Positions 3,504-8,936 of a DNA stretch of 64,000 bases are shown one piece after another. The stretch is from assembly GCA_965223505.1 (NCBI GenBank), contig CBDCWP010000008.1:64001-128000 (forward strand). Direction: 5' to 3'. Within the stretch, counting starts at the first letter, position 1. Each line of letters opens with the position of its first letter. The notes under the pieces were generated by a model that saw nothing but the letters and a program-made list of their open reading frames with translations, was not told the origin of the DNA and did no database searches. The translations under genes and the position numbers were made by a program. The stretch comes from Planctomycetota bacterium. Lineage in GTDB: Bacteria > Planctomycetota > PLA2 > JAEUHO01.

Positions 3504-6500
3504 CTACGGCAACCGGTACACCGCGCCGCGGCGCTTGCCGTCGCGCACCAACAGGCCGCGGTCCATCAGGTCGTGTAGATCGCGCAGCGCCGTTCGAGGC
3601 GACGTGCCCGTCATCTCGGTGTACTCGCGGTTCGTGCAGCGCCCGTTGCGCGCCAGGTAGTCGAGCAGCTTGCGCTGCCGAGGGTTGAGCTCGTCCTGCG
3701 GGGCGCCGCGCGGCGCCAACGTCGCGCCTTCGACGACCGTTCCGTCGAGCTGCAGATGCTCCGGCCCGACGTGGTCCGCCTCGCACAGGACCGCGCAGCG
3801 CTCGACCGCGTTCTTGAGCTCGCGCACGTTGCCCGGCCACGGGTGGCGATACAGCACGTCCATCGCGGCCGGCGTGAGCGCGATGGGACCGCGACCGGAA
3901 CGACGCCGGAAGTCGCGCAGGAACTTCTCCACCAGATGCGGGATCTCCTCGCGCCGCGACCGCAACGGCGGCAGCTCGAGACGAATCACGTTCAGCCGGT
4001 AGTACAGATCCTCACGCAGATGACCTTCGGAAACGGCCTGCTCCAAGTCGCGGTTGGTCGCCGCGATGATGCGTACGTCCACCGTGACCGTGCGCGTTCC
4101 GCCGAGCCGCGTGAACTGGTGTTCCTGCAACACCCGCAGCAGCTTCACCTGCGCGCTCGGCGTCATCTCCGCCACCTCGTCGAGGAACAACGTGCCGCCG
4201 TCGGCCAGCTCGAACCGTCCCTCGCGCCGCCGGTCCGCGCCCGTGAACGCGCCCCGCTCATGGCCGAAGAGCTCGCTCTCGAGCAACGTCTCCGGGAACG
4301 CCGCGCAGTTCACCGTCACGAACGGGCGGTTCGCGCGGTTGCTGCGGCGGTGGATCAGATTGGCAATGACCTCCTTGCCGGTGCCGGTCTCGCCGGTGAT
4401 GAGCACGGACGCGTCGGTTTGCGCCGCGCGCCGGGCCGCATCGACGACGCGCACCATGCGTTCGTTGCGGAAGACCGCACCCTCCTCGAACGGCGGCGTC
4501 TCCACCGCGCTCGCGTCCACGCGCGCTACGTCTTGCACGTGGTTGCCGCCCTCGCGCTTGGCCGCCGTCAGGGCGCGGCCGGCCGCGTCGAGCAGGAATT
4601 CGACGCTGCGCGCGTCGTCGGGCGCGCGGGCGATGCCGACCGAAACCGAAGTGCCCACCGCGTCGCCGCCTTCCTCCGGCGTGATCTCGACGGCGCCCAG
4701 GCGCTCGCGGATCTGCTCGGCGACCGCGCGCGCTTCTTCGGCGCCGACGTCCGACAGTCGCACGGCCAGCTCCTCGCCGCGCAACCGCCCGAGCCGCGAG
4801 CGATCACCCACAACGGAGCGAAGCGCGTCGGCGCACACGCGCAGGAGCTCGCGCGACAGCTCGACGCCGCGCCGCAACGTCACGTGCTCGACGTGGTCGA
4901 GTCCGACCCGCAGCAGCACCGTAGGCCGCCCGCCCGCGAGCGAGCGCTCGACGTCCGAGCGCAACGCCGCTTCGAAGGCCGTCGCGCCCGGAAGGCGCGT
5001 CACGTCGTCAAGCGCGGCGAGCCGGTAAAGCCGCGCGTTGTTCAGCGCCGAAGCGGCGATTCCGGCCAGTGGCTCGAGCAGGCGGCGCGCTTCGCCGCGC
5101 GGCAGGTGGCTCGCGTCCGACCACGCCAAGACCACGAGCGCTTGCAGTTCCGCGCCGCTTCGAAGCGGCACGCTCAGCCATGCATTGCGCTCTTCGGTCA
5201 GACGGCGAACGATCGTGGCTTCGCGCGCGACGGTTTCGTCCGACGCGGCGGAGGTTACTTCCGTCGGTGCGTCGGAGCGCACGGCCGCGGCCAACCAGCC
5301 GTCCTCGGCCGGGTGGATCGGCCGGTCGCTGAACGCGTGCTTGCGCCCGCGCTCCGCCAGCACGGTCATCGTGGCGCCCGCGCCCGGCACGTCGAGCAGC
5401 ACGCTCGACGTCGGCTGGAAGTGATCGTGGAACAGCTCGAGGACGGCGTCGGACAGCGCGCCGAAGTCCAGCGACCGCGCGAACCGGTCTTGTGCCGCGC
5501 GCAGGAAGTCGAGATCGGCCACGCGGTGCTTCAGGTCGAGGCGCATCTGATCGAACGCAACGGTCAGGTCGCCGACCTCGTCGGCGCCGGCCGGCGGCAC
5601 GTCGACGTCGAACAGGCCGGTGCGCACCGCTTCCGTCACCTTCACCAGATCTCGAACGGGCTTCGCCACGCGGCGCGCCATCAGCGACGCCACACAGGCG
5701 ACCAGCACGAGGCCGAAGAGGCCGAGCCAGATGAGTGGATCGCGCTGCTCGGCCACGGCCGCCTCGACGACGGCGCGATCCAAGGACAACGCCAGCCATG
5801 CGGCGTCGTTCGGCCGCCCGCCCACCGGAGACAGCCGCGTCACGACCGCGAGGTGTTCCCGCGGGCCGCTCGAGAGCCGGAGAAGCTGCGCCGTTGCATC
5901 CTGGTCGAGGCGTGCGCGCACCTCGTCGGTGTTGTCGGCGAGCGCGCGGACCAGGTCGCGTGCATGATCGCCGGCGCGTGCGAGCGGTCGTCCCTGCGCG
6001 TCGAGAATCACGAGGGACGCGCCGGGCAGCGCGACGACGTCGTCGAGCAGCGTTCGCAGGTAGCGGTCGGTGGTGCGCACCGCCAGCGTGACGCGCATCC
6101 AATCGTCGCCGCTGCCGCTGCGCGCGGTGCCGAGCATCAGCAGCCCGTCCCAGGGCGAAACATGGAAGCCGCCCGGTTCGCTCGACACCGGCAGGAAACG
6201 CGTGCCTTTCAGGCCCTCGCCTGCGGGTCCCAACGGGATGGGCGTCGGCACGAGATCCGCCCCAGCGACCAGGGCCGAGCCGCCGGTCCCGGCGGGCAAC
6301 GCCGGGTCGCCGTACAGGCCCACGACCCCGGCGATGTCGATGCGCTGCCCCTCGCGATGCGCCGTGGAGAGATGACGCGCCAGACGCCGCGACGCGGACT
6401 GCGCGTTGCGCAGCACGTCGTCCATGCGCGCGGCCGCGGACGTCAGACCGTTGCGGGCGCGTTCGGTGTGCTCCGCCTCGACACGTTTCGCGTTGCCGCG

Positions 6501-8936: not shown

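Follow-up and report, generated by a model that had tools for sequence, protein, structure and literature searches.

A putative membrane-integral sigma-54 activator with three periplasmic sensor regions, and secretin operons as its likely regulon, in Planctomycetota

Can a single polypeptide carry a signal from the periplasm to a sigma-54 promoter without a kinase and, if so, which genes would it serve? The question is raised by an open reading frame of 1810 codons in a 64,000-nucleotide stretch of DNA from a Planctomycetota bacterium (assembly GCA_965223505.1, contig CBDCWP010000008.1, positions 64,001 to 128,000), here called the window. The product of this frame, referred to below as the receptor (P0001), combines three outer sensor regions, transmembrane (TM) helices and an AAA+ ATPase domain as found in enhancer-binding proteins of bacteria (bEBPs). 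The genome under study (G000, 5.15 Mb) contains rpoN; P, G, L and C numbers denote the proteins, genomes, loci and contigs that were compared. We consider it likely that the receptor is an inner-membrane one-component sigma-54 activator and that secretin operons are its output through the mechanism outlined below.

From periplasmic sensors to a sigma-54 ATPase in one chain

The likelier start of the receptor is not the first codon of the frame but a TTG at position 8915, which is preceded by AGGAG and gives a protein of 1803 aa, the same as the database entry P0002. The G+C content of third codon positions stays between 0.84 and 0.95 across all 12 full 150-codon blocks. A chimera or misassembly can be ruled out because dozens of independent full-length homologues exist and because one public contig, possibly from the source sample, matches the window without differences over positions 4379–10500, that is, from the signal peptide into the AAA+ domain.

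Topology was assessed from hydropathy, charge bias and a structure model. Hydrophobic segments were found at residues 289–307, 324–342 (weak, KD 1.45), 761–779, 792–810 and 1068–1086, and this 2+2+1 pattern is repeated across 63 related proteins, with one helix of the first pair just under the threshold in four of them (P0001, P0002, P0004 and P0012). In an alignment of 35 sequences, the two short inner loops have net charges of +4.1 and +2.7 and the outer flanks range from −0.9 to +1.4. Basic short loops with near-neutral flanks fit an arrangement with three periplasmic regions and a cytoplasmic C-terminus. An AlphaFold2 model of residues 46–1090, based on 59 sequences, reached a pLDDT of 87.7.

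The first of the outer regions, a carbohydrate-binding module of family 9 (CBM9), is the best-conserved outer part of the receptor, and is matched by Pfam CBM9_1 at residues 99–271 (1e-16; 61.8 bits against a cut-off of 23.4). It resembles the CBM9 modules of xylanases (TmCBM9-2, CkCBM9.3) in its fold (Z 21), in the two aromatic positions of the clamp and in its invariant acidic residues, but is only 17–23% identical to them and is carried by a signalling protein rather than a hydrolase. In a profile alignment to 1i82, W138 and W260 fall on Trp71 and Trp175 of TmCBM9-2, for which a two-aromatic clamp is described in the text available from PMC8280721. Among 35 sequences, position 138 holds W or F in 33 and position 260 holds Y, F or W in 30; D126, D141, E144, E213 and D239 are invariant. 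With the clamp positions retained, glycan sensing by the receptor appears plausible.

The middle region was modelled at a pLDDT of 93.7 but has no close relative among the VIA structure matches: the best of them is a protein other than a CBM, AziU3/U2 (Z 10.6, rmsd 3.4, 149 residues aligned), followed by a cellulose synthase chain (5eiy_B, Z 8.3) and by CBMs (Z 6.4–7.8), and the corresponding region of P0003 gave no usable match in the ESM Atlas. The third region was recognized through its fold, with VIA Z scores of 10–12.7 over 190–270 residues to dCache domains of chemoreceptors and kinases and a Foldseek E value of 1e-5 to PctA. It fits the dCache layout of a long helix and two PAS-like pockets placed between a pair of TM helices. 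Its sequence is poorly conserved, and the Pfam search gave no Cache match.

On the inner side, Pfam places a HAMP domain at residues 1085–1135 (mean identity 70%), which is followed by a GAF-like domain with a weak GAF_3 match (E 0.064) that rises over the cut-off in the relatives P0135 and P0137. The GGDEF domain that comes next (Pfam, residues 1307–1465) retains neither the metal-binding Asp (0/96 relatives) nor GG[DE]EF (0/96), and the RxxD site five residues before the motif is found in only one of 96; its D-x-x-(T/S) turn is kept in all 96. Judged by these motifs the domain is catalytically dead, and the receptor lacks the sequence signs both of an active diguanylate cyclase and of a cyclic di-GMP (c-di-GMP) receptor of the I-site type. 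It could still act as a second input that senses a nucleotide, either GTP or c-di-GMP at a new site, and gates the ATPase, so that inner and outer signals are integrated. The domain is 63% identical within the family, above the GAF domain (43%) and the outer regions, and c-di-GMP controls bEBPs such as FleQ; against this stand the motif losses just listed and a drop of conservation in distant members. We regard nucleotide gating as rather unlikely; it is compatible with a membrane-integral activator and would refine a single step of its action.

The AAA+ domain is that of a bEBP (Pfam Sigma54_activat, residues 1490–1653, 1e-73, plus the AAA lid), with Walker A at residue 1515, GAFTGA at 1562, Walker B at 1584, the arginine-finger region at 1641 and sensor II at 1700. 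Strict patterns for these elements, all of them present in P0001, were found in 94 (Walker A), 88 (Walker B), 87 (arginine finger) and 85 (sensor II) of 96 relatives, and GAFTGA in 92. Among solved proteins, NifA is the best match to the C-terminal 343 aa (E 1e-87). The DNA-binding domain is of the winged-helix type and is matched by HTH_24 and HTH_DeoR at residues 1750–1798; the Fis-type HTH_8 has no Pfam match in the receptor. The S-x-R-T-x-x-R motif of its recognition helix is kept without exception in 41 sequences. Among the matches listed, the receptor stays under all 25 NCBIfam cut-offs. TM helices and DNA-binding domain share one chain, and by its sequence the receptor qualifies both as a bEBP and as a transmembrane transcription regulator.

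A preliminary description of the window, made from its letters, had proposed a single 1810-aa frame with this order of domains, five TM helices that place three regions outside and all signalling domains inside, a first outer domain of CBM9/DOMON type and an intact AAA+ domain with GAFTGA. All of this has held up, as has the frame in the two checks that the description called for, on chimeric assembly and on full-length homologues. Three of its assignments have become more specific: the region it called Cache-sized has a dCache fold; the GGDEF-like domain is present and is now found to be dead; and the C-terminal helix-turn-helix exists, as a winged helix and not in the usual Fis form. The coordinates of these features and of the loci discussed below are collected in Table 1.

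Table 1. Features of the receptor locus (window positions) and related loci elsewhere in the genome (contig positions)
Feature	Position	Strand	Basis or remark
Receptor-activator open reading frame	3504..8936	−	single 1810-codon open frame
Receptor promoter region	8994..9033	−	−10-like TAAAAT 9028–9033, then half-sites GGCGGAAT 9007–9014 and GCCGGAAT 8994–9001
Signal peptide with basic n-region and short hydrophobic core; A-x-A at residues 44–46	8799..8915	−	sequence reading; homologues alike
CBM9 domain, residues 50–275	8112..8789	−	Pfam 1e-16; VIA Z 20.8–21.3; profile alignment to 1i82
TM1 + TM2, basic cytoplasmic loop between	7911..8072	−	hydropathy, charge, model helices
Middle outer region: two nested beta-sandwiches of jelly-roll type (lectin/CBM-like) on a helical stalk	6657..7910	−	model
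TM3 + TM4, basic cytoplasmic loop between	6507..6656	−	hydropathy, charge
dCache-fold sensor domain, residues 811–1067	5736..6506	−	VIA, Foldseek
TM5 + HAMP domain	5532..5735	−	hydropathy, Pfam
GAF-like domain	5037..5516	−	weak Pfam GAF_3
GGDEF domain, by its motifs catalytically dead: RGEEL, metal Asp replaced, no RxxD, D-x-x-T turn kept	4542..5018	−	Pfam, alignment
Intact bEBP AAA+ domain	3750..4469	−	Pfam, motifs
Winged helix-turn-helix, DeoR-like	3507..3695	−	Pfam
Divergent Amidase_2 gene	9354..10421	+	Pfam; neighbour in this family only
First operon: ~120-aa exported protein + short secretin	G000:C38:288482–290240		repeat + sigma-54-type promoter upstream
Second secretin gene	G000:C33:47639–48982		repeat + sigma-54-type promoter upstream
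XRE + peptidase-S24 (LexA/CI-like) gene	G000:C38:290999–291946 (L148:1853–2797)		divergent from secretin operon across the order
Second, soluble bEBP, winged-helix-like end (L210)	G000:C21:301328–303046		full-length match in G009 alone of 5 genomes tested

A conserved repeat and the secretin operons

We identified a direct repeat of GGCGGAWT with a 10-bp period (full form GGC(G/C)GAWT-N2-G(G/A)C(G/C)NAWT) that lies 88–186 bp ahead of the GG-N10-G sigma-54-type promoters of two secretin operons. At the receptor gene itself, 21 of 34 upstream regions contain ATTCCGCC, where 0.76 would be expected, and half-sites sit beside a sigma-70-like −10 element, forming a candidate autoregulatory operator. 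A search of 40 genomes of the order for the tandem motif gave 26 matches, against none for the reversed control; 14 of the matches lie at the receptor gene, four at the first operon, which consists of a gene for a small exported protein and a secretin gene, three in the divergent region of the second secretin gene and five elsewhere.

An alignment of 15 upstream regions of the first operon shows, downstream of the repeat, GGCAC in every case and TTTG in nearly every case, the two at −24/−12 spacing; the −12 C is replaced by G or T. A matrix derived from 24 relatives locates the repeat in all 11 first-operon loci on which it had not been trained and in all 21 second-secretin loci examined (23 were returned, of which two at contig ends were left out), where GGC(A/C)CG-N3-TTCG follows. 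With matrices built from the relatives only, G000:C33:49163 ranks first and C38:290666 second in 5.15 Mb, and promoters with a score of 19 lie 113 bp and 144 bp downstream of these two sites, respectively. The distances between repeat and promoter, taken from the best-scoring promoter at 48 loci after eight loci without a convincing promoter in range had been left out, best fit a period of 10.5–10.7 bp (R 0.62; 0.56–0.58 on the 31 distinct values), a helical phasing such as DNA looping would demand. A scan of G000 with the canonical sigma-54 pattern gave a weak excess (11 sites against 2 in shuffled sequence at score 15) of sites unconnected to the half-site; it missed the secretin promoters because they lack the −12 C.

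Both secretins are short (360–480 aa): besides the secretin core they have no more than a single short N domain, and they stay under every NCBIfam cut-off. No other secretion-system gene was recognized adjoining the first operon. The small exported protein has no Pfam or NCBIfam name, and one of its members has a weak OmpH-like match (E 4e-4). The end of the second secretin gene is overlapped by a gene for a 241-aa lipoprotein-like product (G000:C33:46914–47639; no NCBIfam match), which may be a partner of that secretin.

Several lines of evidence connect these operons with the receptor. Of 29 receptor-bearing genomes from outside the order, 20 have the receptor gene beside the small gene, and in G000 the first operon still lies near rpsO-pnp, which is the place of the receptor gene in three of the four distant loci examined. 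In the 700 bp upstream of the small gene, the motif is present in 16 of the 23 distant genomes that have the receptor but in only two of 37 in which the receptor was not found (background 43/397), a difference that overstates the association because the genomes are kin.

The repeat could also be the operator of some other factor, such as the XRE-S24 repressor, a canonical LexA or another bEBP, in which case the targets of the receptor would lie elsewhere. The XRE-S24 gene is divergent from the small gene in 35 of 39 relatives of the order, LexA-sized S24 proteins were detected in all five distant genomes tested, and G000 holds a second bEBP with a winged helix. However, the XRE-S24 gene was not found in G057, G061 and G071, all of which have the motif; none of the 28 best sites in G000 lies ahead of a DNA-repair gene recognizable from its first residues; the second bEBP is full-length in just one of five genomes tested; and the presence of the motif follows the receptor. 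The position of the site, about 100–190 bp upstream of a −24/−12 element and in phase with it, is that of an enhancer. All this makes a different binder quite improbable. The sites at the receptor's own promoter, the adjacency, the co-occurrence and the failure of the rival factors to travel with the motif point to the receptor as the repeat-binding protein, and the two secretin operons, located elsewhere in the genome, are its likely regulon.

A high-scoring site before a gene for a 373-aa protein (G000:C41:39552) was rejected as a core target, with a score above 10 in just one of 26 orthologous upstream regions. Other enhancer-like or sigma-54-like sites seen in a single genome lie at G000 C21:338166, C42:50742–51300 and C4:78772, with a further one on C10. 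An RNA-hairpin reading of the half-sites, some of which face each other, was set aside because their orientation and spacing differ between families and their position relative to the promoters is kept.

Between the XRE-S24 gene and the enhancer of the first operon lies a conserved non-coding element (G000:C38, approximately 290700–290850; L148, alignment columns 1–310). It comprises a sigma-70-like promoter, a core that reads GGGAACGGGTCGGACGGG in 11 of the 15 aligned rows, and then a hairpin and a T run, which makes it a candidate small RNA; Rfam gave no match at five loci around the first operon. At 11 loci where the receptor was not found (L268, L269, L272, L275, L277–L281, L283 and L293), the gene directly upstream of the small gene encodes a receiver-like protein with a degenerate GGDEF domain. 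These proteins keep an RDID (RxxD) site and are possible c-di-GMP receptors.

Distribution, origin and neighbouring genes

The receptor is present in all 39 other genomes of its order and in at least 29 further Planctomycetota. All 28 genomes of the family and all 11 of the sister family have its sensor half, in a single copy apart from split contigs. Within the phylum, 43 of 251 genomes match the receptor well past the CBM9, and three more divergent copies were found adjoining the target operon. Among stored proteins longer than 1500 aa, 91 cover all three outer regions, 89 with the AAA+ domain and 86 with the winged helix; the named homologues are from Planctomycetota metagenome-assembled genomes. 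G000 has 22 called bEBPs, among which the receptor is the sole one with TM helices and the sole one with this winged helix.

Frames of 1736–2089 aa with a more distant winged helix (G031:C48, G029:C55, G032:C227, G072:C2, G257:C59, G187:C177, G068:C137 and C15) possibly represent further families of giant activators. A related winged helix also occurs in family f23 (G060, G091, G134, G151, G167, G182, G197 and G212), with two to six copies per genome in frames of about 260–2200 aa; the small exported gene was not found in these genomes.

Membrane diguanylate cyclases with a dCache-HAMP-GAF-GGDEF layout resemble the receptor, P0213 (1535 aa) in particular: it shares the receptor's CBM9/jelly-roll/dCache sensor and HAMP domain but ends in an intact GGEEF cyclase with RxxD, the activity for which the receptor family has lost the motifs, and has neither AAA+ domain nor helix-turn-helix. 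In P0243, found like P0213 in a profile search with the sensor half, a partly matching sensor is joined to a SpoIIE phosphatase. P0213 and P0243 come from low-GC-looking organisms. A relative with a living cyclase suggests how the fusion arose: on the simplest reading, a membrane cyclase would have gained a module of AAA+ domain and winged helix, its active site decaying afterwards.

The gene divergent from the receptor encodes an Amidase_2 protein, and the preliminary description had hinted at a receptor that senses cell-wall fragments and drives this amidase. The amidase gene is next to the receptor in 18 of 22 stretches of the same family, and the half-sites lie within the shared intergenic region. 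However, it is a neighbour in none of nine sister-family and none of five more distant stretches, its upstream regions contain no conserved −24/−12 site, the half-sites of the receptor promoter also occur where no amidase is near, and in these stretches unrelated housekeeping genes, too, often remain syntenic over long distances. We accordingly rejected the amidase as a target and regard this version as very improbable. Of the kinase-free, membrane-tethered receptor for sigma-54 transcription that the same description proposed, the architecture stands, with GAFTGA conserved and rpoN present, glycan sensing remains plausible and the amidase link falls.

On the other side, the receptor's stop codon abuts a TIR-domain gene (TIR_2, ThsB-like; window positions 2541–3503, plus strand) of lower GC content (0.60), which has no counterpart in the other receptor stretches compared. 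It is likely a recent insert, perhaps with an anti-phage role.

Proposed mechanism and relation to known regulators

We infer the following sequence of events. With CBM9, twin jelly roll and dCache regions in the periplasm and HAMP, GAF, dead GGDEF, AAA+ and winged-helix domains in the cytoplasm, the receptor would bind the repeats GGCGGAAT-N2-GGCGCAAT through its winged helices and so tether these loci to the membrane. The trigger on the periplasmic side, which is most likely an oligosaccharide with beta linkages held by the CBM9 clamp, would shift the TM5-HAMP-GAF coiled coil, and the dead GGDEF domain would relay the change via its retained D-x-x-T turn. The AAA+ domains of several receptor dimers, three per hexamer, would then assemble and open sigma-54 promoters by DNA looping. 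The output would be a stand-alone secretin channel with its small partner, and the receptor would damp its own promoter. A stronger formulation, in which the receptor stands for a class of integral-membrane activators with a dead cyclase as mechanical clutch, and glycan binding leads through an AAA+ ring and DNA looping to a secretin pore on demand, is one that we advance tentatively and that may well prove too strong.

Several observations weigh against an inner-membrane activator of the secretin operons. The promoters mostly lack the canonical −12 C, having G, T or A there, and a left-out locus, L221 (183 bp), is out of helical phase. Of 251 genomes, 96 have the small gene, and most of these lack the receptor; seven of the 23 distant receptor genomes lack the motif by the 700-bp test; and two of the 37 receptor-negative genomes hold a related winged helix elsewhere (G114, 4e-20; G226, 8e-19). 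The pockets of the dCache and jelly-roll regions hold few conserved residues. Finally, dimeric HAMP/GAF stalks would have to feed a hexameric ATPase.

This last difficulty would be resolved by a soluble fragment, that is, if the activator acted on the same targets only after proteolytic release of its cytoplasmic part and the membrane merely kept it in waiting, in the manner of RedR2 or PspF. That a soluble bEBP can be sequestered at the membrane is known from RedR2-BtdS (accessible text of PMC10084136), and proteolysis controls several transmembrane transcription regulators, according to the parts available of PMC10269533. Nevertheless, the HAMP domain and the D-x-x-T turn are strongly kept, as expected of conformational transmission; the gene families that recur near the receptor in 36 stretches include, as far as they are annotated, no conspicuous site-2 protease; and the same sensor drives a cyclase in P0213 and a phosphatase in P0243, outputs that are usually tethered. 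Release thus appears unlikely.

As a putative activator working from within the membrane, the receptor combines features of several known systems. One-component bEBPs of the NifA, NorR and XylR/DmpR type likewise have sensors, GAF, a GAFTGA AAA+ domain and a C-terminal DNA-binding domain in a single chain, an enhancer about 100–190 bp upstream and sites at their own promoter. Unlike them, the receptor is an integral membrane protein with three periplasmic regions, has HAMP and a dead GGDEF domain between sensor and ATPase, and pairs a winged helix with direct repeats in place of the Fis-type helix-turn-helix, which binds palindromes. The transmembrane transcription regulators ToxR, CadC, TfoS and ChiS are also single membrane proteins that sense outside and bind DNA inside; ToxR and CadC use a winged helix too, and TfoS and ChiS are described as responding to chitin. 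The receptor differs from them in its predicted output, an ATP-driven remodelling of sigma-54 that requires an AAA+ ring. Sigma-54 activation is tied to the envelope in PspF-PspA/B/C and RedR2-BtdS as well, but PspF and RedR2 are soluble and inhibited when held at the membrane, whereas the receptor has sensor and ATPase in one chain and secretins as its probable output. To our knowledge, characterized sigma-54 activators are soluble and characterized membrane transcription factors have no ATPase ring. Secretins induce the Psp response, as stated in the text available from PMC5596341.

A literature search, which did not extend to older reviews of bEBP architecture, found no description of the receptor architecture, of an integral-membrane bEBP or of a kinase-free wiring of receptor to secretin, in agreement with the preliminary description, which did not recognize the architecture from characterized proteins. 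In the main text and nine supplements of the census in PMC10269533 'Sigma54' occurs 0 times, and the domain list of that census may omit the model. Most sensor domains of Clostridiales enhancer-binding proteins are without TM regions, according to the accessible part of PMC6615313; nothing further about TM activators came from the portions available of PMC4641369, PMC12316311, PMC12970293 and PMC12194929, and that of PMC3162934 contained no match.

If the receptor works as inferred, an AAA+ hexamer that stands on dimeric membrane stalks and reaches looped DNA at the membrane would pose a new structural problem. The receptor would also offer a case of a dead GGDEF domain reused as a relay, with a living cyclase relative available for comparison, and an enhancer system built on a winged helix and direct repeats. 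With operator, promoters and targets specified, the claim lends itself to a test in E. coli with a soluble fragment, and the modular chain from sensor to sigma-54 could become a scaffold for biosensors. The receptor belongs to a large group of uncultured Planctomycetota, being found in every sampled genome of one order and in many other families of the phylum, where its control of an uncharacterized short secretin and an exported protein of about 120 aa would point to an unknown core function of the envelope. Planctomycetota are noted for glycan degradation; if the proposed mechanism is true, those with the receptor would open an outer-membrane channel on demand upon tasting glycan.

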